In this document: piece after piece, positions 10,045 to 55,972 of the stretch
Numbering within the stretch: the stretch's first letter is position 1
Layout of the letters: each line of letters begins with the position of its first letter
Origin: an uncultured Caldithrix sp.
GTDB taxonomy: Bacteria; Calditrichota; Calditrichia; RBG-13-44-9
Assembly: GCA_964461135.1 (NCBI GenBank)
Contig: CAYWTB010000004.1
Coordinates: forward strand, 53,385 to 117,384
DNA length: 64,000 nucleotides
Reading direction: 5' to 3'
The notes under the pieces: generated by a model
Seen by the model: only the letters and a program-made list of their open reading frames with translations
Told to the model about the DNA's origin: nothing
Databases searched by the model: none
Position numbers and translations under genes: made by a program

Positions 10045-10180
10045 CAGGAAGGCACATTAATGGGTGAAGGGGCAGAGTATCGAAGATGAAGGATTAAAGA
10101 TGAAGGAAATAAACATTTGACAGTTGAGCGAGAGGGTAAAGGATAAACGGTAAAGGGAGAAAAGGGAACGGATTACATAT
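10045..10180. repeat. GA-rich intergenic repeat (gaagatgaaggattaaagatgaagg ... gggtaaaggataaacggtaaagggagaaaaggg). Member of a dispersed mosaic repeat family.
   Basis: Similar to 32881..33060 (gggtaaagggaatagggtaaaggacaaagagg ... gatcaaagatcgaagatta), 29760..29810 and 61130..61200. Confidence 0.3.
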
Positions 10181-10483
10181 CCAGTGTGTGAGATTTTTTT
10201 GTGTAATTTGTATTTTGGATTTTATCTCCCCGGATTCATAAAACATGAAACCCTTTTTTTATTGCACCTTGAATCTCCGGTCCAGCTCCCTAAACCCCGG
10301 ATCCTTTTTAAATTGCCGGAACGATTCTCACTTCATATCATGGAACCAGCATCTTCAGGACGGGTCACAAATACCTGAATTCTGAAAACCTACTTCCTGC
10401 TTTCAGCTTTCAGCTATTAACTTTCCGGATACCTGTTTTGCTGCCACCTGGATCCAGGAGGCTGAGCAATGGATGCCAACTCA

Positions 10484-20967: not shown

Positions 20968-21504
20968 TCATCTACGTGGACCTCTGTTTGTTTTTCCTTT
21001 TGGTCCGGTTCCGTCACAATTTCCTGAAGCCGCTCCGGTTCCATACCCCATTCCGTTCTGAGGGCAGACACCCCGGTTACCGGTGCCATCACCGGGACCA
21101 TAACCACCCCTGCGGGTTTTATGTATGGCAGAGGCTTTTCCTTGGCCCTGATTCATATTATCGGCTATACCATCACCGTCTGTATCCACAAACTGCTGCT
21201 GGCGTTTACCCTTACCGGCTCCCTGGTAATCGGGATCCTGGCCGTTGGGAATACCATCCTTGTCATGATCCGGCGCGTTATCATTAAAACCATCGCCGTT
21301 CTTATCAACAAAGTTCGGTCCGTGGATTACCCGGTTCTGCTCAGTGTTTTGAGTAGTTCCCTGGTTCTGATTCTGATCCTTCAGCTGGAGTTCCTGATTT
21401 GTTTTTTCTTTCTGCTTGCTGGAATTGTCCTGGGCCCTGCTGATCCCTGCGGTCAGAGACAGGGACAGAAATACAACGAAAACGAACAGATATAACCTTT
21501 TCAT
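20968..21504 (-). CDS. Secreted Q/N-rich low-complexity protein with DxDxDG loops and a Gly-rich GYGPGDGTGN tail (paralog 2 of 3).
   Basis: Signal peptide MKRLYLFVFVVFLSLSLTAGISRAQ. Loops are FVDKNGDGFNDNAPDHDKDGIPNGQDPD and FVDTDGDGIADN. The tail is RGGYGPGDGTGNRGV...GYGTGAASGNCDGTGPKG. Confidence 0.6.
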   Translation of the reverse strand: MKRLYLFVFVVFLSLSLTAGISRAQDNSSKQKEKTNQELQLKDQNQNQGTTQNTEQNRVIHGPNFVDKNGDGFNDNAPDHDKDGIPNGQDPDYQGAGKGKRQQQFVDTDGDGIADNMNQGQGKASAIHKTRRGGYGPGDGTGNRGVCPQNGMGYGTGAASGNCDGTGPKGKTNRGPRR

Positions 21505-25796: not shown

Positions 25797-26426
25797 TTAT
25801 TTCCCGCCGGTGGATCCGCCATTGCGATTCTGGGTTTTGGAACCGCCTGAAGGGGTACCACTACCCAGACCATAACCGGTACCATCCTTCGGTCCTACAC
25901 CCTGGTTACCGGTGCCGTCACCGGGTCCGTATCCGCCTTTTCTGGTACCCTGGGTGGAACCCGGACCATAGCCGGTTTCATCCTTGGGACCAACGCCCTG
26001 GTTGCCGGTGCCATCTCCGGGACCATAGTGCCCGGCTGCATTATCATTGCCCTTCAGCGAACGGAGTTGAAAGCGGTCATCTATTCCGTCGCCATTCATA
26101 TCCCGGAACTGGAAACGGTATTCAAAACGATTCTGGAACATGTTCTGACTCATGGAGGCTGCCCCGGACTGGTTTTTTATCCGGATCTGGTTGCTGGTGC
26201 TTGATTGCAGCTTGTTCTGATATTGGGTCTGATTCTGCTGCTGCACTTTCGGCTGGTCCTGTGCCTGATTTTTTGTCTGATTCTGGACCTGGTTGTGAAG
26301 CTGTGCTTTGGTTTGGGTCTTCGCCTGGGTCTTGGTTCTTGTTTTCAGTGAGTCCTGTGCAAATGCCTGCAGACTGAAAGCAAGGGTTAATCCCAGGATC
26401 AGAGTGAATTGAGAGATGCGTTTCAT
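25797..26426 (-). CDS. Secreted Q/N/T/K-rich low-complexity protein with a DxDxDG loop and tandem GYGPGDGTGNQGVGPKD repeats (paralog 3 of 3).
   Basis: The likely true start is MKRISQFTLILGLTLAFSLQAFAQ at 26426, preceded by aaGGAGGaagtatc ATG. The loop is FRDMNGDGIDDRF. The repeat tail is HYGPGDGTGNQGVGPKDETGYGPGS...GGYGPGDGTGNQGVGPKDGTGYGLGSG. Confidence 0.6.
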   Translation of the reverse strand: MKRISQFTLILGLTLAFSLQAFAQDSLKTRTKTQAKTQTKAQLHNQVQNQTKNQAQDQPKVQQQNQTQYQNKLQSSTSNQIRIKNQSGAASMSQNMFQNRFEYRFQFRDMNGDGIDDRFQLRSLKGNDNAAGHYGPGDGTGNQGVGPKDETGYGPGSTQGTRKGGYGPGDGTGNQGVGPKDGTGYGLGSGTPSGGSKTQNRNGGSTGGK

Positions 26427-26475
26427 GATACTTCCTCCTTGGTTAAGGTTTTTGTTGTAACACAACCAATATTGC

Positions 26476-26492
26476 CTCAATTGTCGTGCCAA
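26476..26492 (-). promoter_or_regulatory. Candidate sigma-54 (-24/-12) promoter for paralog 3.
   Basis: The minus strand reads t TGGCACG acaa TTGAG gcaa. The -12 element lies about 52 nt upstream of the start at 26426. It has the same TGGCACG-N4-TTG architecture as the site upstream of paralog 2. Confidence 0.4.
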
Positions 26493-29689: not shown

Positions 29690-29947
29690 TCATAAATTAC
29701 GTAATGGAGACGGGTTGTCAAAGAATTATTCTTGGGAATTCGGGCATCCTGCTGTCGGAAAAACAGAAGGATAAAATAAAAGATTAAAGATAGCTGAAAG
29801 AAGAGAGCAGTAACCAACATTCCCGGCGACTCTGACTCCCTGCGGTGGTCTCATCGGTCAGCAGGTAGGCGGATTCGTCCGCTGGCGGAGATAAAATCAT
29901 CCAGAAACCAGCATCAAGCACACAATGTAATTGTACGGGTTCTATAC

Positions 29948-31096
29948 TCAATCCCGAGATTGATAAACCGCTGATACAAATGGACCCTGCAGGTAATCCT
30001 GCGGATCAATCTGGCTTTGCAGGATGCAACCGAAATACCCGCCCATCAGCAGCATCCGGGCACATTCACACAACCCCGCCGCGGTAGTAGCCTGGATGGC
30101 ACGCAATACCTTACCGGCAATGTGAAATGGGTGTATCATATAATAGCTTTCCAGGATTCTCAATCTCCCCCGCTGATCTTTTCCACTGACCGAGGCATAA
30201 ATAACCACCACATCGTGTTCCACCGCCGGAATTGATTCTTCCATGCGCTGCTGAAGTTTCTGTACCCGGTCCTCACCATGGGGAATATGGCGCAGGATGC
30301 CTTCAATCCAGTCATAATGTCCCGGATAACGAAGTGTCTTGTAATCCAGTTCCCGGGTTTTCCCTGCCAGTGCTTCTGTAAGGTCGGCCGCACCGCCGGA
30401 GGTAAGATCCTCTTCATATTCTATTCCATAGAGAATAATTCTGGAACGCTCGGTAAGAGAGGCTTTTATGGTGGTTTCATAATTCCGTATAATTCTGGCC
30501 GGTTTGACATACAGCGTGGCTACTCCCACCGGGCTCCAGGTAAATCCATAAAAATACGGGGGATAGGCATTCTGGGTCAGTGCGCCAACCTTCATATGAA
30601 TGGTATTCACTTTTTCCACTTTATAATCCTTGCAGAACTGGTGATAAAGGCCGTTGGCCAGGACATTAATGAAACCCGGAGCCAGACCTGCCTGCAGGAT
30701 ATAGCCCATTTTGGCATCCCGGGCAATCTCAATCACCTCATTGGTCTCTTTTACATATTCGGTAAGATTTACGTAATGCAAACGGTGTTTTTTGGCCAGC
30801 CGTGCTATCCGTGGCGCCTGGTTTCCGGGAAGACAATCCAGGATGATATCCGCCTGATCCAGCAGGTGGTCAAACCCGGCATCGCTGCCTTCTTTCGGCA
30901 TTACAAAATATTCCACTTCTCCCTGGCGGAACGAGCTGGTGAGAATCCATCCTGCAGCTTCCTTAGCCGCCGCTTCATAACGGTCTCCCAGATAGATATG
31001 GCTGCTGAATTCACCCAGCTCCCGCAGTAACAAACCGGCCGCCCGCCCGATTCCACCGGCACCGGCAATAATAATCTTATACGTTTCTCTACCCAC
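29948..31096 (-). CDS. Saccharopine dehydrogenase-like NAD(P)-binding oxidoreductase.
   Basis: The N-terminal Rossmann motif is IIIAGAGGIGRAAGLLL. At 382 aa the length matches the saccharopine DH family. Confidence 0.75.
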   Translation of the reverse strand: MGRETYKIIIAGAGGIGRAAGLLLRELGEFSSHIYLGDRYEAAAKEAAGWILTSSFRQGEVEYFVMPKEGSDAGFDHLLDQADIILDCLPGNQAPRIARLAKKHRLHYVNLTEYVKETNEVIEIARDAKMGYILQAGLAPGFINVLANGLYHQFCKDYKVEKVNTIHMKVGALTQNAYPPYFYGFTWSPVGVATLYVKPARIIRNYETTIKASLTERSRIILYGIEYEEDLTSGGAADLTEALAGKTRELDYKTLRYPGHYDWIEGILRHIPHGEDRVQKLQQRMEESIPAVEHDVVVIYASVSGKDQRGRLRILESYYMIHPFHIAGKVLRAIQATTAAGLCECARMLLMGGYFGCILQSQIDPQDYLQGPFVSAVYQSRD

Positions 31097-31189: not shown

Positions 31190-32794
31190 TTATTTTTCCA
31201 GAGGCTGCCATTCTCCGAAGGTTTCGATATTAACCTGGATCTGCGGATCAGTTTCATATTTTTCGAAGGTATTATAATACCAGCCCATATATTCCGAATC
31301 ACCTCCATTCTGGGTGGTGATCAGGGGGCGATTGGAGAGATGCCCGATGTTGTCTAAACGATCACGGGGTTCCAGTTTGTCACCGCCCTGTGGATCGATT
31401 GGTATCCAGCCATAGTTGGGAAGATAAACTTCCGGCCAGCGATGAAAAACCTCATCCAGGCTGGCATCATCACCCCGCACCATTACCGCACCCACATATC
31501 GCGCCGGCAGACCGGCTGCCCGGCACAGAGATATGAAACTGAACGTGTATTCTGAACAGGAACCGGTGCCTCTTTTCAGAACAAAGGGAGCCACATTCCA
31601 GCCACCTTCCAGCTTATATTCCAGGGTATTGCGTACATAATCAAATATTTTACGGGCAATCCAGTAGGGATTTTTTTCTGCGCTCACTTCCTTCTGGACA
31701 ATATCCCGGATATAGGGGTCATTAATCTCATACTTACTGCCATCCGCGGTATATCTCCCGCGGATATTGGACGGAATATCCGAGAGGATTCCGCATTGAT
31801 CAGGGAAAATAAAGTAACGGATTTCCGAAATCTCCGCCTCCACGGTCATTACCAAAGTGCTCTTGCTTTCGGAGATCAGGTTCTTATAATTAAAATGGGC
31901 AAACTTCTGCTTCCAGTGGTCTTCAACCGTTTGGTAATCCGTGGGATTAAATTTCACGGAAAGTATTTTCTGCTGATTTAAATTTTCCGGTACGGCAAAA
32001 TACACATCCAGGTTCTGAAGCTTTCCGGTGCCGGTTGTTTTTACCTCATGGATCAAGGTTATCAGAGCCTTACGGGTATTGTCCAGATGGAACAGGTCCT
32101 GATCTTTGCGTACCAGCTGATACATGGCATCTGTCTGGTAATCCACATTCCAGAGAGTGGTTCCATCCCAGGTTATTCCCCGCGGATAGGGGGCAGGAGA
32201 GTCACACATGATGATAACTTCCCCATTGGCCGGATCAATCATATACAATTCATTGGCCAGGCGATCGGAGCTCCACAGGTAGCGGCCGTCGAAGGTGAGA
32301 CCCTGAACGGTGCGGGCCGGAGCTGTGAAAGTCTTCAGGGCGGTTCCATCACTCAGATCAATTTTCATGATACTGTTCTCTTTGGAATCGCTTACCCATA
32401 GCGTCTTGCCGTCCCAGGCCAGGCCTTCAGGATTATCACTCGGAGCATCTATTGCCGCCAGAATGGATCCATTTCGGGGATCAATTTTAAAGATCTTTTT
32501 CTGCCTGGAATCCACATTCCACAAGTGTGACCCGTCCCAGGCCAGTCCCATCGGCCAGAAACCGGGTGAAGGAATGGAATGTTGAACTTTTCCGGTTTCC
32601 GGATCGATACTATAAATTTTATCCTCTTTATGATCCGCCACCCAGAGATATTTTCCGTCGAAGGTCATTCCGGTAGAATGTAAAGCCGGTGCCGGAAATT
32701 CTTTAATAATTTTTCCCGGATAGCCGTACATCACAGAAACGGTTAGTAATAAAAGCAAACATATCAAAAGGTTAATTCTGGACATAATAATCAC
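31190..32794 (-). CDS. Secreted two-domain protein: an N-terminal beta-propeller of ~47-aa repeats (glutaminyl-cyclase-like blades) fused to a C-terminal transglutaminase-like cysteine protease core.
   Basis: Signal peptide MIIMSRINLLICLLLLLTVSVMYG. Five repeats of the type GLAWDG.HLW..D.....I.KID...G are present. The C-terminal GTGSCSEYTFSFISLCRAAGLPARYV carries the catalytic Cys, with His and Asp-like positions downstream. Confidence 0.7.
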   Translation of the reverse strand: MIIMSRINLLICLLLLLTVSVMYGYPGKIIKEFPAPALHSTGMTFDGKYLWVADHKEDKIYSIDPETGKVQHSIPSPGFWPMGLAWDGSHLWNVDSRQKKIFKIDPRNGSILAAIDAPSDNPEGLAWDGKTLWVSDSKENSIMKIDLSDGTALKTFTAPARTVQGLTFDGRYLWSSDRLANELYMIDPANGEVIIMCDSPAPYPRGITWDGTTLWNVDYQTDAMYQLVRKDQDLFHLDNTRKALITLIHEVKTTGTGKLQNLDVYFAVPENLNQQKILSVKFNPTDYQTVEDHWKQKFAHFNYKNLISESKSTLVMTVEAEISEIRYFIFPDQCGILSDIPSNIRGRYTADGSKYEINDPYIRDIVQKEVSAEKNPYWIARKIFDYVRNTLEYKLEGGWNVAPFVLKRGTGSCSEYTFSFISLCRAAGLPARYVGAVMVRGDDASLDEVFHRWPEVYLPNYGWIPIDPQGGDKLEPRDRLDNIGHLSNRPLITTQNGGDSEYMGWYYNTFEKYETDPQIQVNIETFGEWQPLEK

Positions 32795-33153
32795 CTTCTT
32801 TAATTTAAACAGATAATTGATTTAATACCCGTAAAATGTAGCATGCGGGAGGTATCAAAACAATTGTGAATTTATTATGTGAAAACAGGGTAAAGGGAAT
32901 AGGGTAAAGGACAAAGAGGACAGGCTTCAGGAATCAGGAGTCACAGGAAGTACAAGATCAAAGATCGAAGATTACCACAAAGTGGTCGCTATGCGAAAGA
33001 TTAAAGAGGATAACAGGGATAAGGGAAAATATGGCAGTGGACAGTAACCAGCATCTAGAATCCAGTTGGCAGTAGGCAGAAAGTTTCAAGGTTAAAGACT
33101 TAAATTAAGGTACCAGAAAAAACTGTATAAATAGGGAAATTTCGTAATAATTC

Positions 33154-33256
33154 GTGTAATTCGTGGACAAAAAAAACAGTTGGCAGTCTGCAGTCTTTAG
33201 TTGGCAAAAAAACAAGATTCCCGAAAAATACGTTTTCCTCCGGAAAACAAATCGGG
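33154..33256. repeat. Conserved ~100-bp non-coding core element, copy A. About 98% identical, as its reverse complement, to 55748..55848.
   Basis: The two copies were aligned by eye and differ by about 4 substitutions or indels over ~100 bp. The element contains the internal hairpin cccgaTTTGTTTTCCGGAGGAAAACGtatttttcggg and direct repeats of agttggca. A flanking hairpin ctaaatca-gcca-tgatttag lies at 33258..33277. Confidence 0.6.
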
Positions 33257-33338
33257 ACTAAATCAGCCATGATTTAGCCCCTACCCAGCAGCTAGCACCC
33301 AGCATCATTATTCCCGACGACTCTGGCTCTGTTGGAAT

Positions 33339-34079
33339 TCATTTCCTGGAATCGGCCTCATCCATCAGCCTGCAGGCTTCCAGAAGCACATTCATGGTGG
33401 ATCCCTGGATATTCCGTTCTACCTTTTTGTCCACCGTCGGTTCAAATTTAAAAATTCCTTCCTTAAATGCGACCATTTTGTTGACGGCATCCTTACCCAG
33501 GATATTATCCGCAACCCGGGCGTAAATCATATCACCCTTGTCAAAGACAATCTCCCCTTTGTCGTCGGCCGTCACTTCCATTCTTCCGCTGCGCTTATTC
33601 AGATTAAGCAGCTGTACCATCTCCACCAGTGACAGATCGGCCAGATTTCCTTCGAAACCTTTCATCTGTGAAACTTGTTCATTTTCCACTGTTTTAACAC
33701 GTTTAGCCCTGCCCAACAGGGTTCCAACCTTTTCCAGTAGAATTTTACGATCTACAGGTTTTACCAGGTATTCATCAGCACCCGCCCTGAAACCCCGGAT
33801 TTCCATATCCTGGTCACTAAGACTGGTGAGAAAAATGAAGGGCACCATGGGTATTTCCGAATTTTCCCGCACCATCCAGCAGAATTCGATACCATCAGTC
33901 TGGGGCATCATCACATCGGAAATAACCAGATCCGGCTTAACTGAATTTACCTTCTCAATCCCTTCATCTCCGTTTTCAGCCGTATAAACCTCATAACCGG
34001 CCTTCTGAATACTGATGCTCAACAGCTTCAGGACATGCGGATTATCATCAACAATCAGTATTTTTTCTTTTTGTGCCAT
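33339..34079 (-). CDS. Orphan response regulator: REC domain plus a C-terminal DUF4388-like domain.
   Basis: Receiver motifs are ILIVDDNPHV...DLVISDVMMPQTDG...K. The C-terminal GNLADLSLVEMVQLLNLNKRSGRMEV...G.I.F..G is DUF4388-like; this assignment is from memory. Confidence 0.7.
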   Translation of the reverse strand: MAQKEKILIVDDNPHVLKLLSISIQKAGYEVYTAENGDEGIEKVNSVKPDLVISDVMMPQTDGIEFCWMVRENSEIPMVPFIFLTSLSDQDMEIRGFRAGADEYLVKPVDRKILLEKVGTLLGRAKRVKTVENEQVSQMKGFEGNLADLSLVEMVQLLNLNKRSGRMEVTADDKGEIVFDKGDMIYARVADNILGKDAVNKMVAFKEGIFKFEPTVDKKVERNIQGSTMNVLLEACRLMDEADSRK

Positions 34080-34143
34080 TACAGATCACATTGAATTTAT
34101 AATTAAGAATTATCCCCGGGATTCTTAGTAACCAACAGGATTC

Positions 34144-35175
34144 TCAGGAGACATTCTTCAATTTTGAAAAACGAATGGTTTTATTTCGTCCGCTGGCTTT
34201 AGCCTGCTGTAAGGCCTTATTGGTATATTCCAGAAAGTGTTCTGTCTTCTTACTCTCGGCAAGATCAATTTCCAACAGACCAATACTCACTGTCAGTTTC
34301 TGATAATCATGCTTTCGTTTGGGAGAAAGTTTCTTGAGTTCATAAAAATTCTGATCAAAAAACTTAGTCTGGGCCACGGCGGAACGAATTCTTTCCGCTT
34401 CATAAAATGCACCCGCTTCATTGGTGATGGGCAACACGACAGCAAAACGGTTGGCCTCAAATCTGAAAACAACATCTGTTGTGCGTGTATTGTTTAGTAT
34501 GACATTGGCAACACGCATCAGAATATAATCGCCGGTTTTTTCCCCGAACACCTCATTGACATTATGAAAAAGATCCACATCAATAAGAACCAGGGACAAC
34601 TGATGTTTATATCGTTTAGCCCTGGCCAGTTCTTCCTTGAGCCGTTTATGAAGAAAGGTTCTATTATACAGGCCGGTCAGGGGGTCGGTGATCTGGGTTC
34701 CCTCCAGCTCCACCGTTTTCTTCTGCAGCTGTTCGATTTCTTTCAGTGCATCCGATTTCTCAGCTATCAGACTTTTATTATGCTGTCTCAGATTATTCAC
34801 GAGTTCCTTTTTGTGCAGGATGGACTTAACTCTGGCGACCAGTTCCTTGGCATTGAAAGGTTTTAAAATATAATCATCCGCCCCCAGTTCAATACCCATA
34901 ATGCGGTGCTCATCCTCCACATAATTGGCTGAAAGAAAAACCACCGGGATATCCTTAGTCTGAGGATTTTCCTTCAGAATTTTACAGGCCTCAAAGCCAT
35001 TCATCACAGGCATCAATGCATCCAGAATAATGATGTCCGGTTGCTCTTTTTCCGCCACGCTGACACCTTCCTTACCATTTACAGCTCTGAAGACAGTAAA
35101 CTCATAAAAGCGCAGCAGATGATCCAGAGTATCAAGCATGTCTTCATTATCGTCAACAATCAACACTTTGGACAT
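34144..35175 (-). CDS. Response regulator with a degenerate GGDEF domain: the I-site RxxD is retained and the A-site GGEEF is replaced by EANRF. Likely a c-di-GMP receptor rather than a cyclase.
   Basis: The REC domain is VLIVDDNEDM...DIIILDALMPVMNG. The GGDEF fold contains DPLTGLYNR, but the active-site stretch is RTTDVVFRFEANRFAVVLP, compared with RESDLVARYGGEEFAVLLP in PleD. Confidence 0.8.
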   Translation of the reverse strand: MSKVLIVDDNEDMLDTLDHLLRFYEFTVFRAVNGKEGVSVAEKEQPDIIILDALMPVMNGFEACKILKENPQTKDIPVVFLSANYVEDEHRIMGIELGADDYILKPFNAKELVARVKSILHKKELVNNLRQHNKSLIAEKSDALKEIEQLQKKTVELEGTQITDPLTGLYNRTFLHKRLKEELARAKRYKHQLSLVLIDVDLFHNVNEVFGEKTGDYILMRVANVILNNTRTTDVVFRFEANRFAVVLPITNEAGAFYEAERIRSAVAQTKFFDQNFYELKKLSPKRKHDYQKLTVSIGLLEIDLAESKKTEHFLEYTNKALQQAKASGRNKTIRFSKLKNVS

Positions 35176-35326
35176 CGATAAACTCGTCCTTCCATTTAAA
35201 ACGCTTAAGATGTTTATTTATATTTTGTTGTACTTTGATTCACCCGCCTCCCTCTGGCACAATTGAATTCCACGGGTTGTGATACCCGTTCGGGAGAAAA
35301 TTTCACTATTTTCAGGTGATCCGTTT

Positions 35327-35701
35327 TTAAATCAGTTCTTCATATCCGGATTTATCCAGCAGTTGGTTTACCTCATTCTTATCTGACAATTTTATTTTAA
35401 TCATCCACCCCTCACCGTAGGGATCCTTATTAATGATTTCAGGTTCATCGGAGAGTTTGGAATTAATATCGGTAACTTCGCCGCTGAAGGGAGCAAAAAG
35501 GTCGGAGACGGCTTTCACTGCTTCTATGGTTCCGAAGCTTTCGGATTGTTTGGTTTTAAGTCCTTTTTCCGGCAATTCCACATAGACAATGTCACCCAGT
35601 TCGCTTTGAGCATAGTCGGTAATTCCAATAGTGGCCACATCGCCCTCAATCCGTGCCCATTCATGGTCTTTAGTATACTTGAGATCTTCCGGAATTTGCA
35701 T
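35327..35701 (-). CDS. gcvH: Glycine cleavage system H protein.
   Basis: 124 aa. The lipoyl-lysine motif is EAVKAVSDLFAPFSGEV. The N-terminal YTKDHEWAR is typical of GcvH. Confidence 0.9.
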   Translation of the reverse strand: MQIPEDLKYTKDHEWARIEGDVATIGITDYAQSELGDIVYVELPEKGLKTKQSESFGTIEAVKAVSDLFAPFSGEVTDINSKLSDEPEIINKDPYGEGWMIKIKLSDKNEVNQLLDKSGYEELI

Positions 35702-35714
35702 TTTTGCCCTCCAA

Positions 35715-37073
35715 TCAGGTTTCGATTAATTCTTTTCTGTATATTTTCTCGATGAAATTAGTATCAAAATTACCAGATTTAAATTCCTCTGTTTCAATAA
35801 CATATTTATGAAATGGAATGGTGGTTTTTATACCTTCCACTACGAATTCATCAAGCGCCCGCCGCATCCGGTTGATGGCTTCTTCCCGGTCTTTTCCCCA
35901 GACGATCAATTTGGCAATAAGTGAATCGTAAAAGGGAGGAATTTTATAAGATCCGTAGATGTGTGTATCCACTCGTGTTCCGGGTCCTCCCGGCTGATAC
36001 ACCGAGGTAACCTCACCCGGAGAAGGAATAAAATTATTGGCTGGGTCTTCCGCGTTGATCCGGCACTCAATGGAATGACCCAGTGGTTTTAGCTGGTTTT
36101 GTTTCAATTCCAGAGTGCGACCTGTAGCAACCATAATCTGTTCTTTTATCAGATCCACATGGTATACCATCTCAGTAACGGGATGTTCAACCTGAATCCG
36201 CGTATTCATCTCCATGAAATAGAAATTTAAATCCACATCTACCAGAAATTCAATAGTACCGGCGCTGTAATATCCCACATGGAGTGCTCCCTTTACGGCC
36301 GATTCCCCCATAGCTTTTCTGATTTTTTCTGTAACGATGGGAGACGGGCATTCTTCAATGAGTTTCTGGTGCCTTCTCTGAATTGAACATTCCCGCTCAC
36401 CCAGGTACACCATATTCCCCTGCTGATCACCCAGAAGCTGTATCTCGATGTGCCGGGGACCTTCGATATATTTTTCCAGGTAGAGATCGGGATTACCAAA
36501 GGCTGCTTCCGCCTCGGCGCGGGCCATCATAAAGCTGTTTTCCAGATTTTTAGCTTCCTTGACAATTCGCATGCCCTTACCACCGCCGCCGGCCACAGCT
36601 TTCAGCATTACTGGATATCCCACCTCATCAGCCAGCTGAACGGCTTCGCTTTCTTTTTTTATCACGCCTTCACTGCCGGGAACAACCGGTACTCCCGCTT
36701 CAGTCATGTATTTTTTTGCTTCGGCTTTATCACCCATACGGCGAATATTTTCCGGAGAAGGTCCAATGAAGGATATCTCACAGGAATTGCACATTTCGGC
36801 AAACTCGGAATTTTCCGCCAGGAATCCGTATCCCGGGTGGACAGCATCAGCACCGGTGATTTCTGCAGCAGAAATTATACGAGTAGCATTCAGGTAACTC
36901 TGTGAACTGGAAGCCGGGCCTATACACACCGCTTCATCAGCAAATACTGTATGAAGGGCATTTTCATCCTGGGTTGAATAAACCGCCACGGTCTGGATTC
37001 CCAGTTCCTTGCAGGCCCGGATTATCCGGATTGCGATCTCACCCCGGTTTGCAATCAGAATTTTTTTAAACAA
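35715..37073 (-). CDS. accC: Acetyl-CoA carboxylase biotin carboxylase subunit.
   Basis: 452 aa. Begins [21 protein letters not shown]. The ATP-grasp region contains [10 protein letters not shown], and [14 protein letters not shown] is also present. Confidence 0.95.
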
Positions 37074-37085
37074 GAACGTTTTTCC

Positions 37086-37568
37086 TCAATCTTTTTCAAT
37101 CAAAAATAAGACCTGATCATATTCCACGGGTTGCGCATTTTCCACCAATATTTTTTTCACTGTTCCACCAAGTTCAGACTGAATTTCATTCATTAATTTC
37201 ATCGCTTCAATAATACATAGTGTTTGACCCACTTTTACGTGATCTCCCACCTCTACATAGGGATCGGCATCAGGTGCCGGAGCTCGGTAAAACGTTCCCA
37301 CCATTGGAGAGGATACTTTATCAAGATTTTCGGCGGCTTCTTCCCCAGCAGGTACCGGAGAACCCGGAACGACACCTTCATTGACGGGGAGCGTTTCCAT
37401 GGTAACCTGGGGGGGATTCGAAGCTTCACTGTAAGTGACAACTGAAGGCTGTTTCATACTGCTGTTCTTGGAAATACGGATTCGGCTTCCTTCCTCCACA
37501 ATTTCAATTTCACCAATATCACTCTGTTCCACAACCTTGATAAGTTGCTTTATTTCACTAAATTTCAT
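37086..37568 (-). CDS. accB: Biotin carboxyl carrier protein.
   Basis: The C-terminal biotinyl domain with EAMKLMNEI carries the biotinyl-Lys. A Pro/Ala-rich linker precedes it. Confidence 0.9.
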
Positions 37569-37632
37569 CCATCCTCCAGTGATTTTATCATTAGTTTACC
37601 AATTTAAATGGTTGCTAATTTTTTTGCAAGAT

Positions 37633-38232
37633 TTATTTTCCAGTCTGCCGGTAGAGATCCTGTTCCTCAATATAAGCCGACACATCATCAGGAACCAGAT
37701 ATTTAATTGAACGCCCTTCCCTTACCCGCCGGCGAATGATGGTGGAGGAAATCTCAAGCAGGGGGACATTGACAAAACGGATATGAGGGATGAATTCCTT
37801 AACGGAATCTGCAGGTTTGAAGCCGGGGCGCCCGAATGCTACTAACTGACAAATTTTAAGAATTTCCAGAGGTTCTTTCCAGCGCGGTAATTCATTGACA
37901 TTATCCATCCCGATAAAATAATAAAACCAGGGTGAAATATTCCGGTAGGTCTGTTCCAGAAGATGCAGGGTATCGACGGTATAGGAAACACCTTCACGGG
38001 AAAGTTCGATTTTACAGGTTTTGAAATAAGGATTATCCGCTACCGCCAGTTCCAGCATCTTCAGGCGTTCCCCGGCTTTTGATATCCCCACATTGTCTTT
38101 CAGGGGGTGAATTCCAACCGGAATAAACCAGATTTCATCCAGCTTCAGATCATCACGCAGAAATTCGGAAATGATCAGGTGTCCATTGTGAATGGGATCG
38201 AAAGTTCCTCCAAGAAGGCCGATTTTTTTCAT
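37633..38232 (-). CDS. nadD: Nicotinate-nucleotide adenylyltransferase.
   Basis: MKKIGLLGGTFDPIHNGHL is the (H/T)xGH nucleotidyltransferase motif. The ORF track extends the frame upstream to 38376, overlapping the BamD-like gene; the internal Met at 38232 is the more plausible start. Confidence 0.8.
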   Translation of the reverse strand: MKKIGLLGGTFDPIHNGHLIISEFLRDDLKLDEIWFIPVGIHPLKDNVGISKAGERLKMLELAVADNPYFKTCKIELSREGVSYTVDTLHLLEQTYRNISPWFYYFIGMDNVNELPRWKEPLEILKICQLVAFGRPGFKPADSVKEFIPHIRFVNVPLLEISSTIIRRRVREGRSIKYLVPDDVSAYIEEQDLYRQTGK

Positions 38233-38260
38233 GGCGTCACTTTTATAAGAGGTACTGCCG

Positions 38261-39031
38261 CTAATTATTGGCAAGTCTTCTCTGAATCTCACTAATTCTT
38301 GAGGTGGCTTCACGCGTAAAATTGCTCTTGGGATACTTCTCCACAAATACGGTGAAGGTAGTAAGCGCCTCATCATACAATTTTAGTTTGTACTGACAAT
38401 CCGCCTTCCAGTATAAAGCTTTTTCGGCGGCAGACGTGTCATAATATTTTTCCAGAAGGATGTTATAATAGATGATTGCCGAATCATAAATTCCCATCTT
38501 CCGGTAGACATTACCACCCAGCAGCTGCTTTCTGGCCAACTTTGAACGTAATCCAAACAGTTGTTTTTCAGCACGCTCCCGGTAACTGCTTTCCGGATAA
38601 GCTTCAATGAAATTCTGAAATTGTCGCAATGCTTTCAGCGTATATTCCTGATCCAGTTCCGGTCTCTGGGACAGATTATAAAAGCTCATACCCACTTTAT
38701 AAAAAGCCTCCTGAACATAGGGGCTTTCAGGATAATCGTTTATCAGTTTCTGATATTCCGCCACGGCAATAAGATATTCCTCATTCATATAATGGGATTC
38801 AGCCAGATAAAACTGGGCATCATCCACCACCGGGTTACCGCTGAATTTCAAGGTTATGACTGTGAATTCGGTGATGGCGTCCAGATATTTACCTTTATCA
38901 AATTGCTTCTTTGCATATTCAAAATATCTCTGGGCATCGAAAGTATCTTTGTGCACTTTTTTCCCGCAGGATGAAAGACTGATGACAATAAAAACGATTA
39001 TCAGCGGGAAATAAATCACCTTTTTTAGCAT
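38261..39031 (-). CDS. bamD: Outer-membrane lipoprotein with TPR repeats, BamD/ComL-like.
   Basis: Lipoprotein signal with lipobox (…ISLSSCGKK). TPR-like helices are present, for example YEYAKKQFDKGKYLDAI. Confidence 0.7.
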   Translation of the reverse strand: MLKKVIYFPLIIVFIVISLSSCGKKVHKDTFDAQRYFEYAKKQFDKGKYLDAITEFTVITLKFSGNPVVDDAQFYLAESHYMNEEYLIAVAEYQKLINDYPESPYVQEAFYKVGMSFYNLSQRPELDQEYTLKALRQFQNFIEAYPESSYRERAEKQLFGLRSKLARKQLLGGNVYRKMGIYDSAIIYYNILLEKYYDTSAAEKALYWKADCQYKLKLYDEALTTFTVFVEKYPKSNFTREATSRISEIQRRLANN

Positions 39032-39663
39032 TATGAACCACTCCTTAATGAAAAAAATAAGTATACAACCCCAATAGTAGCAACAGTTACCAATGCGGGT
39101 TCAATAAATTTCTGAGAAAAACGAGAGCCTGTTTTTTCTCCCTGGCTAAACTCATAAAAATCATTTTCAACTTTGTTCGTTTCAGATCTGTTTAAAGTAT
39201 CCGAATGACTTATAGTTCTACTGTAAGAATAACTAATAGATTCATGCGGATTAATTACATAAAATGTGAAAAGTGTATTGATATTACGCTGGTAGTGACC
39301 GTACCGGAATAACAGGTCCCGGTCAAGCCCTCGATAAGTGATTTTCGCATCAATTTTATCGATGATCAGCCTGTAGTGAGTCTTTGAAGTACTGTCTGTG
39401 AATTCTGTTTTCAGGCTGACATTTAGGTTCAGTAATTCCCCCCGCAATTTTCCTTCCAGCCATTGGCTGACATCATTATTATCTTCAGAAATTAAATAAA
39501 ACGGCCCTGTTCCGGAATACAGTGAATCGACCGCAGAAATGACAGGCTTTACCAACAGATCCGTAAGTATCTCCAGATTAGTTTCCGTTTGAGCGTTAGC
39601 TGTTTGAAAAATAGCCCAAAGACTAAAAAATATTCCGAAAATTATGTTTTTATTGAACTTCAT
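39031..39663 (-). CDS. Hypothetical secreted or membrane-anchored protein.
   Basis: An internal Met gives the signal peptide MKFNKNIIFGIFFSLWAIFQTANAQ. There is a C-terminal hydrophobic anchor. No recognizable motif. Confidence 0.4.
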   Translation of the reverse strand: MKFNKNIIFGIFFSLWAIFQTANAQTETNLEILTDLLVKPVISAVDSLYSGTGPFYLISEDNNDVSQWLEGKLRGELLNLNVSLKTEFTDSTSKTHYRLIIDKIDAKITYRGLDRDLLFRYGHYQRNINTLFTFYVINPHESISYSYSRTISHSDTLNRSETNKVENDFYEFSQGEKTGSRFSQKFIEPALVTVATIGVVYLFFSLRSGS

Positions 39664-39688
39664 ATACTTTAATATTTTATATAGACAG

Positions 39689-41251
39689 TTAAAATCGAAA
39701 AAAAATCTTCCCAAGTAAAATGAAAAAAATAAATAATCCCGATAGAATAAGCATTAATTTACCAAACCATTCACCACTTTGGCTGTAATATGTGGCTTCG
39801 AGTTTCAGCGGTACCTGTGCGAGAAGATCCTTGCGGGTATTCAGGCCTGCTTTTTTTAAGACCCTGCCAGTCGGGTCAATGAAACAGGAAATACCGGTAT
39901 TGGCACATCTGATGATACTTACCCGGTTTTCGATGGCACGATACACCGCATAGCGGGCATGCTGGTAAGGGCCGCTGGTGGTTCCAAACCAGCCATCGTT
40001 AGTAATTATAGTCAGGAGATTTGCTCCATTGCTAATAAAATTCCTGATCATGTGGGGGAATACGGATTCATAACAAATGGCTGCAGAAAGGGCGGTCATG
40101 ACGCTGTCTGACGATTCGAACTCATTTTCCTGGTACAGTTTGTCACGGAAATTACCCCGGCGAACAGCAATTTTAAAGTCAAAAACAGCATATTTATGTC
40201 CCGGAAAAAAATCTCCGCCGCCGACATCCCAATCGCGCAAAAAAGGAAAATATTTTTTAAAAGGCATGGTTTCCGAACCGGGGACCAACGCTATTTTATA
40301 ATAGCTCTGATATGAGGGATCTCCTGGCCGGAAAAAGAAGGCGGCATTATAGGTATACACATCACTTTTATCCGGAGAATACTGGTAGTCCGGCGTTCCG
40401 GTTAATAAATACACATCATTGGAATCCGTAAAAGCGGCAATCCGGTTAATTTCATTAATATGTGTTCTTAAATAAAATGGTGTGGCTGTTTCAGGCCATA
40501 CTACCAGTTCAGGTTTTTCATTCATCATTTGGCGTGAAGCATCCATGAGCATGTTAAAGGCGTTCTGCTGGAACTCGGGATCCCATTTTTCATAAGGATC
40601 AACATTGGGTTGAACAAGTCCTGCTTTGATAAGGTAATGATCTGTAATATCAATCTGATGCATACGATATTTGCCATAGAGAAAGGCACACAGTATTAAA
40701 ATCAGTGAACCCAGCGGAACAAGCCAGCGTTCCCGGTGTGCATAACGGAATACCACATATATGGATACCGCCATTACAACCAATATAAAAGACACCCCCA
40801 GATAACCGGTCCACTCGATAAATTGAACAAAGGGGAGATAATAGGTCTGGGTATAGGCCAGTGTTAACCAGTTAAAACGAATATCGGTAAATAACCGCAG
40901 AAATTCCAAGCCTGTCCATAAAAAGGGCAGACTGAACAGGGCCAGAACTTCCGATCTGCGGCGGAATATTGTATATAACCACCACAGAAAGGCATAATGC
41001 AGGGAATTAATGGTAATAGCCAGCAAGGCACCCACCAGCGTACTGGAAGCAATCCAGAACAGCGTCATGGCGCCCCAAATCAGACCCAGCCAATACCCAA
41101 GGCGAAAGGCATCCCGGCCCGATTTATCTTTCAAAAACCATAGGAACAGAGCCAGAGCAAGCGGTGCCAGGAAACCCAGCGGGAATGGCGGAAAACTCAA
41201 GGTCAGTAATATTGAGCTCAAAAAAACATATTTTAAGTCACGGCTATCCAT
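39689..41251 (-). CDS. lnt: Apolipoprotein N-acyltransferase.
   Basis: 520 aa. An N-terminal multi-TM region is followed by a CN-hydrolase domain with E...K...C residues (...ICYESVFP). Confidence 0.9.
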   Translation of the reverse strand: MDSRDLKYVFLSSILLTLSFPPFPLGFLAPLALALFLWFLKDKSGRDAFRLGYWLGLIWGAMTLFWIASSTLVGALLAITINSLHYAFLWWLYTIFRRRSEVLALFSLPFLWTGLEFLRLFTDIRFNWLTLAYTQTYYLPFVQFIEWTGYLGVSFILVVMAVSIYVVFRYAHRERWLVPLGSLILILCAFLYGKYRMHQIDITDHYLIKAGLVQPNVDPYEKWDPEFQQNAFNMLMDASRQMMNEKPELVVWPETATPFYLRTHINEINRIAAFTDSNDVYLLTGTPDYQYSPDKSDVYTYNAAFFFRPGDPSYQSYYKIALVPGSETMPFKKYFPFLRDWDVGGGDFFPGHKYAVFDFKIAVRRGNFRDKLYQENEFESSDSVMTALSAAICYESVFPHMIRNFISNGANLLTIITNDGWFGTTSGPYQHARYAVYRAIENRVSIIRCANTGISCFIDPTGRVLKKAGLNTRKDLLAQVPLKLEATYYSQSGEWFGKLMLILSGLFIFFILLGKIFFRF

Positions 41252-41305
41252 TTAAATTCAATTTACTTTCTGACATATGTTTCTGAACTGGGGTCATGAG
41301 GTATT

Positions 41306-42340
41306 TTACAGACGTATTTCATGCTGTTCCTTCATTGACTCATAAACCCCGTCGATGATACTGAAAATTGTGACGGCATCATCAATTCCGGATTCAAGCT
41401 GGTCAGTGCGACCGGTCAGATAATCAAGAAAATGATTCACTTCATTCTGGTAGGCGAGTTTAAAGTTACCGATTTTACTTTCCTTGAGTTCCGGTGTAAT
41501 ATTCATCATCTGTCCGTGCATTATCTTCTGGAGGCGCAAGGGATCCAGGGTGGCCGTGCCTTCCCGCCCGGCAATTTCCAGATACAAATGGTCACTGGCC
41601 AGCGGGAAATTCCAGCTGATTTCCAGCGAAAAAGTAAGGCTATCTGCAAAAGTAATACAAACCACACAAAAATCTTCCAGTGAGAGATTTTCGTTGATCC
41701 GGTAGGCAAAAGACTTGACTGACTGCGGGGCCGGTTTTCCCAGGAGCCACCATACCAGGTCAATCAACTGGACGCCCAGATCCAGAACCACACCGCCACC
41801 TGATACCGGTTTATTTAACAGCCACGGTTGCTTGATTGACTGATGATAGGCCTGTAGCCAGCCTGCCTTGATGAAAAACAATTTCCCCAGTTCCTCAGCA
41901 TGTATAAATTTTCGAAGTGCCAGTATATCCGGACGGAACCTGTTTTGCATACCCACCATCACAATTTTACTTGCCATCACCGCACGGTCCTTTATTCGCC
42001 GGACTTCCGCGCCATTCCTACCTGCCGGTTTCTCGATAAACAGGTGCAGACCGTGTTCCAGCGCCAGCAGAGCCATGGGCAGATGTAAATTATTAGGTGT
42101 GAGAATGAATAAGGCATCCAGATCTTCTTTCATCAACATATCTGCAATATCTTCATAAACATGGGGCACATTGAATTTATCCGCCAGAACCGCCACTTTC
42201 GAGGTATCCGAATCACATAATGCCTGCACATTAACATCAGGGTGTTTTTGCAAGGCCGGGATATGTATAACCTGGGCGATTCCTCCACAACCCACTACAC
42301 CCGTTTTTACCGGAAGACCCGTTTTTTTACCATTATTCAT
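41306..42340 (-). CDS. Gfo/Idh/MocA family NAD(P)-dependent oxidoreductase.
   Basis: N-terminal Rossmann GVVGCGGIAQVIHIPAL. The ...EKP motif is present (LFIEKPAG). Confidence 0.85.
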   Translation of the reverse strand: MNNGKKTGLPVKTGVVGCGGIAQVIHIPALQKHPDVNVQALCDSDTSKVAVLADKFNVPHVYEDIADMLMKEDLDALFILTPNNLHLPMALLALEHGLHLFIEKPAGRNGAEVRRIKDRAVMASKIVMVGMQNRFRPDILALRKFIHAEELGKLFFIKAGWLQAYHQSIKQPWLLNKPVSGGGVVLDLGVQLIDLVWWLLGKPAPQSVKSFAYRINENLSLEDFCVVCITFADSLTFSLEISWNFPLASDHLYLEIAGREGTATLDPLRLQKIMHGQMMNITPELKESKIGNFKLAYQNEVNHFLDYLTGRTDQLESGIDDAVTIFSIIDGVYESMKEQHEIRL

Positions 42341-42764
42341 GTTTTATCCTGGATTTTTCAAGGTCTAAATATGTCTGTAAAATAAATTGTGCCGCCAGTT
42401 GATCTATTTTATCCCGGTTTCTGCTGGGTTTTTTCCCCAGCTGGTGCAGGGTAAGCTCCGCCTGCAGGGTTGTCATTCTCTCATCAAAAAGTGAAACCGG
42501 GATTTTGATTTTATCTTCCAACATTTTTGCAAATTCGCGTACTTCCAGCGTTTTACGCGAATCGCTTCCCTTCATGCTCAGCGGAAGCCCGCAAATTATT
42601 TTTGTGACCGCATACTGCCCGACCAACGACCTCAATTCCTGCATCAACTGCTGCTGCGAGGAGTAGACAATGGTTCTGAGGGGCTGAGCGATAGTCAGAG
42701 ACGGATCACTGATTGCCAACCCAACTCTTTTCTCTCCGTAATCAATTCCTAAATATCTGGTCAT
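42333..42764 (-). CDS. ruvX: Holliday junction resolvase-like RNase RuvX/YqgF.
   Basis: The N-terminal MTRYLGIDYGEKRVGLAISD is a hallmark of the YqgF family. Confidence 0.9.
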   Translation of the reverse strand: MTRYLGIDYGEKRVGLAISDPSLTIAQPLRTIVYSSQQQLMQELRSLVGQYAVTKIICGLPLSMKGSDSRKTLEVREFAKMLEDKIKIPVSLFDERMTTLQAELTLHQLGKKPSRNRDKIDQLAAQFILQTYLDLEKSRIKHE

Positions 42765-42765
42765 A

Positions 42766-42800
42766 GATAAAAAAACCGCTCATTTAATAAAGAGCGGTAA
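42766..42800 (-). terminator. Rho-independent terminator after the HU gene.
   Basis: aaaaaaCCGCTCatttaataaaGAGCGGtaattaaaaaaaa: a 6-bp GC stem. The minus-strand RNA has UUUUUUUA after the stem. Confidence 0.55.
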
Positions 42801-42850
42801 TTAAAAAAAATAAATAATTTATGTCAATTGAATTATATTTCTGATGTCGA

Positions 42851-43165
42851 TTATTTATTCTTTATGGGTTGTTTCAAGATATCTTTCAATAATTTGCCAG
42901 GTTTAAAATGAGTCTTACGCCGGGCGGGAACATAGATGATTTCACCTGTTCTTGGATTTCGGGCCTTTGGCTTAGGTTTAGTTTCCTTGATTTCGAAAAC
43001 ACCAAAATCTCTGATTTCTATCCTGACTTCAGGATTTGCTTCGCTTAAAATTTCCCGTAGCGCCTCGAAGACAGCATTCACGAAATCTTCCGTGATATAT
43101 ATTTTCTGTCCCAGTTTTTTGGCAACCCGTTTAGAAACCTCTTTCTTGGTAACGGTTTTCATCAT
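42851..43165 (-). CDS. hup: HU/IHF family nucleoid-associated DNA-binding protein.
   Basis: 104 aa. The arm motif RNPRTGEIIYVPARRKTHFKPGK is present. Confidence 0.9.
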   Translation of the reverse strand: MMKTVTKKEVSKRVAKKLGQKIYITEDFVNAVFEALREILSEANPEVRIEIRDFGVFEIKETKPKPKARNPRTGEIIYVPARRKTHFKPGKLLKDILKQPIKNK

Positions 43166-43268
43166 ACTTTCCCTTTATTAACTAATAATTTCAATAACTT
43201 GTTATTTTTGTAAAATTTAATCGCATAAAATGTGTTTTGCAAGAAAAAAAATGTTAAATACAGGATTA

Positions 43269-55316: not shown

Positions 55317-55747
55317 TTATTCTCCTAAAATTTGTTTGACCTGGAATCTAAAGATGCTTCAAACCGACCTGATATGAAATATATTAACAAAACCTTACCC
55401 AAAATGCAAAATGTAATGGGCTGGATACTGGATGCTGGCTAAACCAGGGACGGTTTAGTCCCGACGGGTCAACCGGAGGTTGACAGGGAGGCGGGAATCT
55501 TTCGCATGGCGACCACTATATAATAATCTTGCCCTTCTGTCCTCGGCATTACCATTCGACTTTACTTACATGTCATCCCTACAGGATTTAGATGGTGGTG
55601 CGGTATCACCTTTTTATATAAACATGTCGCCCTTCTGGGGTTTGGTTCACGAATAACTCAATTTTTAATACATGGATGGGACATCCGCGTCACAGACGTT
55701 TTGTTTTTAGTTTTTTTTGATCTTTGTGAAATCCTGGAAGATTTCAT

Positions 55748-55848
55748 CCCGATTTGTTTTCCGGAGGAAAACGTATTTTTCGGGAATCTTGCTTTTTGCC
55801 AACTAAAGACTGCAGACTACCAACTGTTTTTTTGTCCACGAATTACAC
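55748..55848. repeat. Conserved ~100-bp non-coding core element, copy B. Reverse-complement match to 33154..33256.
   Basis: Same evidence as copy A. Its flanking hairpin ctaaacc-agggac-ggtttag lies at 55439..55458. Compared with copy A, a ~287-bp stretch bounded by a tcccga direct repeat separates the hairpin from the core. Confidence 0.6.
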
Positions 55849-55972
55849 AGCGCAAAGCGCAGAGCGGAAGACAGGAAGCCCTTATCCTTTCTCCCTTATC
55901 CCCTTTCCCCTTTCCTGGCTCCTGACACACTGAATCCTGTTTCCTGGTACCTGAGACCTGGCACATTTAGCC

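Follow-up and report, generated by a model that had tools for sequence, protein, structure and literature searches.

A probable family of structured, modular intergenic repeats in an uncultured Calditrichota-like bacterium

Among the short intergenic repeats of bacteria, the REPINs, considered here together with the repetitive extragenic palindromes (REPs) and the bacterial interspersed mosaic elements (BIMEs), are mobilised by RAYT transposases (PMC2817692, PMC3733652, PMC3116915), and a REP in the strict sense carries an unpaired GTAG or CGTC tag at the end of its palindrome (PMC3733652). The BOX, RUP and SPRITE repeats belong to one species, occur at lower density in its closest relative and are absent beyond; they are interpreted as parasitic repeats able to affect the expression of their neighbours (Croucher et al., PMC3049150). 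From the phylum Calditrichota the only repeat reported is an 18-nt palindrome of Caldithrix abyssi, aAACCGTTgaAACGGTTt, which has been described as REP-like (PMC5317091). The subject of this report is a non-coding sequence of about 100 nt that is present as two near-identical inverted copies, A and B, in a 64,000-nt stretch of DNA from an uncultured Caldithrix sp. (contig CAYWTB010000004.1, positions 53,385 to 117,384; hereafter the window).

This sequence most probably represents a lineage-specific family of structured, modular intergenic repeats, comparable to REP, BIME and BOX elements, in an uncultured Calditrichota-like bacterium. The reading is drawn from the comparison of filled with empty orthologous sites, from the unrelated contexts in which the units occur and from the shuffling of their modules. 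It adds a previously undescribed modular repeat family, set in unusual heptad-rich spacers, to a barely explored phylum neighbourhood.

Copies A and B and the anatomy of the unit

The original prediction described a near-identical inverted pair of about 100 bp with some four differences, and this description holds. By blastn, with which a repeat search agrees, positions 33154-33275 (+) match the reverse complement of 55729-55848 over 122 nt at 92.6% identity (E = 7e-43), the two copies lying 22.5 kb apart. Within the ~100-nt core they differ by two substitutions and two one-base indels, both of the latter in homopolymer runs, and a 37-mer, CCCGATTTGTTTTCCGGAGGAAAACGTATTTTTCGGG (CCCGATTTG...TCGGG), occurs exactly twice in the window, as against zero times in 100 shuffles. 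With the sense strand defined as + at copy B, and so as - at copy A, both copies face a downstream gene in the same way, as had been observed: a transglutaminase-like gene (31190-32794, -) follows copy A and a 4Fe-4S protein gene (+) follows copy B. The start of the latter (TTG, 56030) is given by an independent JGI gene call (P0121, 437 aa, 100% identical).

That the pair was created by an assembly duplication or a chimera is exceedingly improbable, and nothing speaks for it beyond the general risk of metagenome-assembled sequence. The substitutions and indels separate the copies, their flanking hairpins differ and other samples hold additional copies. The copy A junction is moreover reproduced by an independent Logan assembly, which breaks there in the way expected of a real repeat: contig L001 (SRR9710702) is 100% identical to window positions 33228-43585 and terminates at ...TCCCGATTTGTTTTCCGGAGGAAAACGTAT, exactly 30 nt (k-1, with k = 31) inside the stretch that A and B have in common. 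This is where a de Bruijn graph should branch if the repeat is a true one, and the identical contig with its junction excludes the duplication artefact against which the original prediction had cautioned. Another short-read contig, L002, also breaks inside the block, and L089 breaks ~190 nt upstream of its orthologue of the 4Fe-4S gene. Units of this kind thus interrupt short-read assemblies of the lineage, and could be mis-annotated as riboswitches or small RNAs (sRNAs).

The core shared by A and B consists of two adjacent modules of a small, modular family of structured intergenic repeats. Module 1 is a unit of ~65-70 nt with two hairpins. The first, hp1, has the consensus YKAAAYC-ANGGAN-GRTTTMR, in which a 7-bp A/U-rich stem carries an ANGGAN hexaloop (20 nt in all; an example, written as RNA, is GAAAUCACGGAAGAUUUC), and is followed by a single T. 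The second, hp2, has an outer stem, CCCGA/TCGGG, around GTTTTCC-GGA-GGAAAAC, a 7-bp inner stem with a GGA triloop, and ends in GGGAAT-CTTG; its conserved parts are the CCGGAGG apex and the GGGAAT 3' end. From TCCCGA to CTTG, 45 nt in all, A and B do not differ. The internal stem-loop that had been noticed in the core corresponds to hp2 (CCCGA...TCGGG) by both sequence and folding. Module 2 comprises a short T-run, four 7-nt units (TGCCAAC TAAAGAC TGCAGAC TGCCAAC) and then TTTTTTTGTCCACGAATTACAC, a part also written TTTTTGTCCACGAATTACAC. Direct repeats of AGTTGGCA, likewise reported from the core, do exist, but they are the complement of this 7-nt tandem run and belong to it.

Units were scored with R1, a covariance model built from seven of them, which gives 70-99 bits on true units and does not exceed 16.6 bits over 769 kb of controls (loci from many phyla, too scattered to be of use for taxonomy or synteny, found via methylmalonyl-CoA mutase, with matches of 60-68% and a best identity of 67-68%). 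The parts of the family present in the window are as follows.

33258..33281 (-): hp1 of copy A, CTAAATC-ATGGCT-GATTTAG, with GGGG/CCC lengthening the stem to 12 bp and GATTTGTTTT coming next; -16.1 kcal/mol, z = -4.7
33213..33257 (-): invariant 45-nt block of copy A, TCCCGATTTGTTTTCCGGAGGAAAACGTATTTTTCGGGAATCTTG (hp2); R1 97.3 bits over 33200-33277
33154..33212 (-): tail of copy A (module 2), with T-run, four 7-nt units and TTTTTTTTGTCCACGAATTACAC
55727..55746 (+): hp1 of copy B, TGAAATC-CTGGAA-GATTTCA, abutting the core
55747..55791 (+): invariant 45-nt block of copy B (hp2), identical to that of copy A; R1 92.7 bits over 55727-55803
55792..55848 (+): tail of copy B, with 7-nt units and TTTTTTTGTCCACGAATTACAC
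55439..55516 (+): X-type unit of spacer B, with hp1 CTAAACC-AGGGAC-GGTTTAG at 55439-55458; R1 70.5 bits, E = 6.5e-18
29803..29930 (-): decayed X-type unit, hp2 recognisable and hp1 broken; R1 20.3 bits over 29803-29883, E ~1e-3
32968..33002 and again 55496-55530 (no strand assigned): module AATCTTTCGCATRGCGACCAC..., 35 nt, 86% identity (repeat search)
32795..33338 (-): spacer A, expanded to 544 nt, in which modules and 7-nt tandem repeats form a mosaic
55317..56029 (+): spacer B, divergent and expanded to 713 nt, a mosaic of the same kind

The X-type unit of spacer B changes the view of the hairpins that the original prediction had placed beside the two cores. The compensatory changes that it described are real, and stronger than described, but the hairpin with arms ctaaaCc/gGtttag does not adjoin core B: it lies at 55439-55458, ~270 nt away, and is the hp1 of a separate, diverged unit. 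The X unit is thus a second unit in spacer B, older than copy B. In length the X type equals the core type, and it keeps the hp1 stem and loop, the following T, the CCCGA, the CCGGAGG apex and the GGGAAT, while the interior of hp2 differs; in the window copy hp2 reads TCCCGACGG-GTCAACC-GGA-GGTTGAC-AGGGAGG-CGGGAAT. The decayed unit resembles the X-type unit of L002 and lies just past the stop of the gene at 29948-31096. The surroundings of the two cores had been described as diverged. They do, however, hold short modules in common, arranged in a different order: at core A the module AATCTTTCGCATRGCGACCAC... is found on the downstream side, whereas at core B it precedes the core and immediately follows the X-type unit.

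Small open reading frames (ORFs) cross the core (33100-33270, -; 55701-55925, +). A coding reading of them is rejected; all six frames are open, and the T-run indels put different copies in different frames. Among 5.8 billion proteins, six-frame peptides of the invariant block found one weak match, and this to the heptad tail only.

Fold, distribution and orthologous spacers

In hp1, nine sequences form standard pairs in 63 of 63 cells, as against 25-51% in slid controls, and three of the seven pairs are changed on both sides (C-G/U-A, U-A/G-C/G-U and C-G/U-A). Across the whole unit, with 19 pairs in seven sequences, 95.5% of the cells are paired, compared with 21-62% in slid controls, and eight of the 19 pairs are compensated; the inner stem of the window X unit alone shows three fully compensated pairs relative to the core. 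The covariation score of the whole unit, taken from a small sample with two deep types only, is 0.358 against 0.159 ± 0.034 after shuffling, a value reached in none of 500 shuffles, and RNAalifold independently yields the same fold. The T-A/C-G swap at position 6 of hp1 is found within both types, so that more than one event must have occurred. The original prediction of a conserved, structured, non-coding element with hairpin covariation is thereby borne out. As the pairing has been maintained, the sequences indicate an element that works in a folded, single-stranded state, whether as RNA or as single-stranded DNA. Two G-U pairs and one C-A mismatch fall on the sense strand, which mildly favours that strand without being decisive. 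Selection on the folded strand is evident from the compensatory changes, from the ANGGAN loop, which stays constant, and from the near-invariance of the 45-nt block.

The family is very rare in public genome, metagenome and protein data. The central 22-mer has no match among 185,579 species-representative genomes, and a scan of JGI metagenomes returned four contigs with the 22-mer block (L002-L005), all from Ga0315555 and with flanks unrelated to the window. The hp1 pattern was searched in 96.5 kb of lineage DNA and in 1.28 Mb of control loci; it occurs at nine distinct sites in the former, as compared with three strand-hits in the latter, and has no match in 64 kb from the more distant relatives (L086-L090), on which R1 likewise gives nothing convincing. 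Six core-type units are present (A, B and one each in L002, L003, L004 and L005), and X-type units are found in the window (55439-55516), in L003 (2942-3019) and in L002 (182-~300). All units are intergenic, and the window carries them at a density of 3-4 per 64 kb. Two borderline R1 matches, at window 45073-45128 and L004 13027-13102, both fall within coding sequence and are rejected. Viral contigs with the family-level pattern gave eight single matches that score 13-21 bits by the model and lack hp2, which is consistent with chance.

Exact look-ups of four proteins (that of a 190-aa gene, that of a 534-aa transglutaminase ORF with a GTG start, P0121 and that of a 354-aa gene near the right edge) returned nothing. 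The closest named homologues of both downstream proteins belong to metagenome-assembled genomes of Calditrichota/Calditrichia (67-75% identity). Taken over all loci, the window and the Ga0315555 organism carry the repeats densely, a relative at 77-79% nucleotide identity has them in part and relatives at 65-71% have none.

Orthologous loci show that the units have been added to spacers which, in more distant relatives, are short and free of repeats. Spacer A, measured from the stop of the response-regulator gene to the transglutaminase start, is 544 nt long in the window, 262 nt in L086 (84% orthologue) and 137 nt in L087 (71%, fully syntenic). The L086 spacer contains heptads and module 2, here split by a 28-nt palindromic insert, with no two-hairpin unit, and that of L087 contains none of the modules. 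Spacer B, 713 nt in the window, is a repeat-free 148 nt in L090 (75% orthologue, MsrB synteny kept), and L089 (83% orthologue of the copy B locus) holds a fragment of hp1 together with heptads. Without the unit, the ~110 nt adjoining the transglutaminase start (32795-32905), a proximal promoter and 5'UTR region that is all the relatives retain, align between the window and L086, and the unit of copy A sits in ~280 nt of extra, window-specific sequence. A motif TTG-N20-TACATTTY (in the window TTG-N20-TACATTTT) is conserved ~60-90 nt upstream of the transglutaminase-like gene (window 32820-32905, -; L086 690-760); by its likeness to the Bacteroidetes -33/-7 consensus, it is probably the native promoter of this gene.

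These comparisons bear directly on the proposal that the transglutaminase-like and 4Fe-4S genes are co-regulated by the element as an RNA leader acting in cis or as a riboswitch. In its favour, both copies face their downstream gene and the fold is conserved with covariation. The unit is, however, absent from the orthologous spacers of L086, L087, L089 and L090; it lies 180-800 nt from the start codons, with other repeats in between; and the five oriented copies are followed by genes with no functional relation to one another (transglutaminase-like, 4Fe-4S, a pilin-like cluster, an MFS transporter, and a pair formed by a small protein with a domain of unknown function and a nucleotidyltransferase). 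L002 also has a unit that is inverted relative to its neighbour. Rfam 15, one of the checks that the original prediction had named, was run over the whole window and both spacers; no family matches at the gathering threshold over the whole window, and in both spacers matches up to E = 10 are at chance level only. The leader proposal, which the original prediction had listed first, is therefore highly improbable, and a gene-specific leader or riboswitch is excluded for practical purposes: the two flagged genes are not regulated by the unit in any conserved way.

The preferred reading, that of a dispersed repeat, agrees with the way in which the spacers are assembled. Unit-bearing spacers are unusually long and have many short modules in common, in shuffled order. 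Module 2 occurs alone in L004 and L086. In L005 one 166-nt module is present twice (the copies 90% identical), preceded in one case by the unit and in the other by heptads; the unit is thus separable, with its right edge just after GGGAATCTTG(T)n.

Another small element is associated with these modules. The 28-nt palindromic mini-insert (CCTGCCTGGCGA...GACAGG, that is CCTGCC...GACAGG) occurs in L086 (548-576), L002 (~120-150, -), L004 (8890-8925) and L005 (274-302), and a related piece lies at ~63806-63835 of the window. In the relatives it splits a module between GTCCAC and GAATTACAC, and it is absent from that module in A and B, which suggests that tiny elements are nested inside other repeats. 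L005 (1-2267, 2.27 kb) has identical 127-nt ends, and is therefore circular or tandem; from its translations it appears to be built of toxin-antitoxin-like cassettes (a Phd/YefM-like antitoxin and a nucleotidyltransferase-like pair) with repeat-laden spacers between them.

The spacers that bear the repeats also show a 7-nt periodicity, which is absent from other spacers and from coding DNA. Their self-match at a lag of seven is 0.356, as compared with 0.263 ± 0.007 in shuffled sequence (none of 300 shuffles reaches it), and arrays of at least three heptads are ~5x denser than in the control loci (1.28 Mb). Many different heptamers take part, among them AAGGATT, AACTTAT, ACTGCCK, CTGGATG, AAGATCA and CCTTTAG. 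Heptad sites are located at 32795-33338, 55317-56029, 10060-10230, 10393-10415 and 61152-61181 of the window, and in the spacers of L002-L005, L086 and L089.

Elsewhere in the window, a family of 77-nt direct repeats (65-73% identity; 21041-21117, 25870-25946 and 25966-26042), rich in CCGGTG/CCGGGA, sits inside the minus-strand ORFs 20968-21504 and 25797-26492, whose translations are probably related Gly-rich repeat proteins. An ORF of more than 2,463 codons (1-7389, -) runs past the left edge and, if it encodes a protein, this would be a giant one.

Spread and possible function

Under the dispersed-repeat reading the units would proliferate as selfish or neutral repeats, in the manner of REP/BIME, BOX or Correia-type elements, and would spread by trans-mobilisation or recombination. 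The original prediction had considered a transposable element unlikely, since the 22 kb between the copies is occupied by housekeeping genes. This argument does not apply: A and B are not the two ends of one element but most probably independent insertions of a small dispersed repeat. Co-orientation with the adjacent gene is seen in six of the seven informative units and, as most units share this arrangement, they are probably co-transcribed with their neighbours. The RNA hairpins and U-rich tracts would then probably serve to end upstream transcripts or to stabilise their 3' ends, and the units may also offer protein-binding loops. The family is thus a candidate for a repeat exapted as a terminator, an RNA-stability element or a protein-binding element.

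Several observations weigh against this reading. Neither a transposase nor terminal inverted repeats, a target-site duplication or a REP tag came to light; with no mobilising enzyme or insertion signature, mobility is read from the pattern of presence and absence only. The orientation bias (p ~0.06) is not significant and the sites are non-independent. Only ~10 units are seen in the ~160 kb of lineage DNA. The ANGGAN loop and CCGGAGG apex suggest a specific recognition for which a repeat does not account. Finally, six copies from two organisms agree at 98-100% identity over the 45-nt block, of which 22 nt were fixed by the search pattern and the other 23 not. As a yardstick, the sole non-repeat segment common to the window and Ga0315555 (63080-63298 vs L002 7512-7735, mostly inside a 110-aa ORF at 62958-63290) is 84% identical over 227 nt. 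The identity of the block could come from sequence-level selection, from recent spread or from transfer; its near-invariance exceeds what a neutral parasite needs, and hints at function or at very recent spread.

One possible function is that of a terminator or insulator cassette, in which tandem hairpins and U-rich tracts stop read-through between genes. On the sense strand of the core type a U-rich tract follows each hairpin, and a consensus scan finds terminator-like signals on this strand only, with three and four sites in the two spacers vs 0.6-0.8 expected. The units of A, L003 and L002 lie downstream of co-directional genes. Copy A has a strong terminator-like hairpin: its hp1, with a 12-bp stem of -16.1 kcal/mol followed by GAUUUGUUUU, stands 58 nt past the response-regulator stop, has the form of a Rho-independent terminator and is probably the intrinsic terminator of that gene. 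Core-type hp2 has this form in part, but the X-type, L004 and divergent-spacer copies do not. The spacers of B and L004 are divergent and leave no upstream transcript to be terminated, the fold persists without U-tracts in X-type units and in L004, ordinary hp1 is weak (-5 to -7 kcal/mol) and relatives do without any such element in spacers of 137-148 nt. That the unit is chiefly a terminator is accordingly unlikely; because of the divergent spacers, the missing U-tracts and the weak ordinary hp1, termination is a plausible local consequence and not the property that defines the family.

A different function is suggested by the loop of hp1. An ANGGAX hexaloop on a C-G closed stem is the high-affinity RsmE/CsrA consensus (PMC4005645). 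Of the nine hp1 sites, seven have the ANGGAN hexaloop directly on a C-G closing pair, about half with a penultimate U-A, and the loop does not change where the stem co-varies. The two GGA motifs, in hp1 and hp2, are 27 nt apart, a spacing within the range reported for dual-site binding by the CsrA dimer, and the units are mostly in sense with genes. Flagellar gene sets are the usual genomic home of csrA-fliW. C. abyssi possesses a full flagellar gene set (PMC5317091). The unit may therefore be an RNA-level or protein-binding platform, with hp1 and the hp2 apex binding a protein of the CsrA/RsmE type, or another one, as part of a regulon or as a sponge. However, the match is post hoc and to one of many known RNA motifs, and the copies, being homologous, amount to one observation. 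The loop of copy A has GGC (AUGGCU) and folds differently, that of copy B starts with C (CUGGAA), and no GGA site overlaps a ribosome-binding site, the units being 180-800 nt from start codons. A tblastn search with the CsrA of Escherichia coli and Bacillus subtilis found no csrA in the ~160 kb of lineage DNA, which says nothing about the rest of the genome. A functional protein-binding module is thus quite unlikely as the main account. It is decidedly doubtful, too, that the repeat has seeded high-affinity CsrA-type hairpins into the untranslated regions of many unrelated genes, to form a sponge or a Csr-like regulon; if it had, a selfish repeat would double as a post-transcriptional network, and the near-invariance of the 45 nt would reflect that function.

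The unit might alternatively be a gene for a small trans-acting RNA, as the original prediction had also suggested, or a portable promoter of the Bacteroidetes-like type (-33 TTTG / -7 TAnnTTTG). The former would agree with a compact, structured and highly conserved unit of ~70 nt with U-rich 3' parts; the latter with TTTG-N17-TATTTTTC inside the invariant block and with TTGGCA-N16/17-AAAAAT on the antisense strand. Both are very unlikely. No conserved sequence, and so no conserved promoter, precedes hp1 across the copies, and in the diverged X-type units both promoter-like motifs are gone, as are the U-tracts, although the fold is retained. The genes, moreover, have a conserved proximal region of their own, TTG-N20-TACATTTY, with a spacing of 20 and not 17. 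A sigma-54 reading of TTGGCA is rejected on inspection, as neither the spacing nor the -12 element fits.

Comparison with known repeat classes

The dispersed-repeat reading places the family beside several known classes. With REP, BIME and REPIN elements (PMC2817692, PMC3733652, PMC3116915) it shares short, multi-copy intergenic hairpins arranged in mosaics, restriction to a genus or species and a position mostly downstream of genes; like these, it is plausibly transcribed, with RNA hairpins for termination or mRNA stabilisation. It differs in having two different hairpins and a conserved loop sequence, in belonging to another phylum and in that no RAYT is seen in ~160 kb. At 20 nt, hp1 falls within the 20-40 bp of the intergenic REP palindrome. 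Strict REPs also number over 100 per genome and have an associated RAYT gene. Neither GTAG nor CGTC stands at hp1, whose flanks are ...ATTG/...CTGG (5') and TCCCGA (3'); GTAG is found near copy A only, and CGTC only inside the paired stem of X-type hp2. A BIME-like mosaic of conserved motifs is present, without the alternation of a BIME: paired units are co-oriented in spacer B and L003, are opposed only in L002 and are irregularly spaced, at 130-290 nt.

Two mobile classes can be set aside. In the manner of a miniature inverted-repeat transposable element, the 122-nt segment should end in inverted repeats; on inspection its ends (TGAAATC.../...GAATTACAC) are not such repeats, and neither A, B nor the L-loci have a duplicated flank. 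An integron attC site, with its R''/R' core sites (RYYYAAC ... GTTRRRY) in an array of cassettes of one orientation beside an integrase, is rejected on the 3' arm of hp1, which reads GGTTTCA/GGTTTAG and not GTTRRRY, and on the 22 kb of housekeeping genes between the window copies.

BOX elements (boxA-boxB(n)-boxC), with RUP and SPRITE, of Streptococcus pneumoniae (PMC3049150) are similarly modular, structured, intergenic and co-transcribed. The distribution is also alike, thinning here from the window to L086/L089 and then to L087/L090. By contrast, BOX has a fixed A-B-C order, whereas the order is variable here and 7-nt tandem repeats are interleaved; sequence and phylum are unrelated.

The stem-loops bound by CsrA/RsmE (RsmZ/RsmY/CsrB, the hcnA ribosome-binding site) resemble hp1 in the hexaloop and C-G closing pair, with a second GGA in the hp2 apex. 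The hairpins described here differ from them as dispersed genomic repeats that are neither sRNAs nor ribosome-binding sites, and copy A has lost the GGA.

The C. abyssi palindrome is a neighbour at the level of the phylum. It is intergenic and multi-copy, with AAACC...GGTTT arms as in hp1, and is absent from the window. It is self-contained, with no conserved flanks, and is without the ANGGAN loop, the second hairpin and the heptad context.

For that context there are precedents in the heptanucleotide repeats, namely the short tandemly repeated repetitive (STRR) sequences of cyanobacteria and the TAACTGA repeat of Beggiatoaceae, Cyanobacteria and Bacteroidetes (PMC4679880), which likewise form intergenic 7-nt arrays. 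The comparison concerns context only: the heptamers here are many and different, are not concentrated just upstream of start codons and belong neither to TAACTGA nor to STRR1-3, tandem TAACTGA, CCCCAGT, TTGGTCA and CAACAGT all being absent. Lastly, the small dispersed repeats of the Nostocales, reportedly treated by Elhai et al. in 2008 (cited in PMC3116915), provide a parallel for tiny palindromic inserts nested in other repeats, of which the 28-nt CCTGCC...GACAGG is an example.

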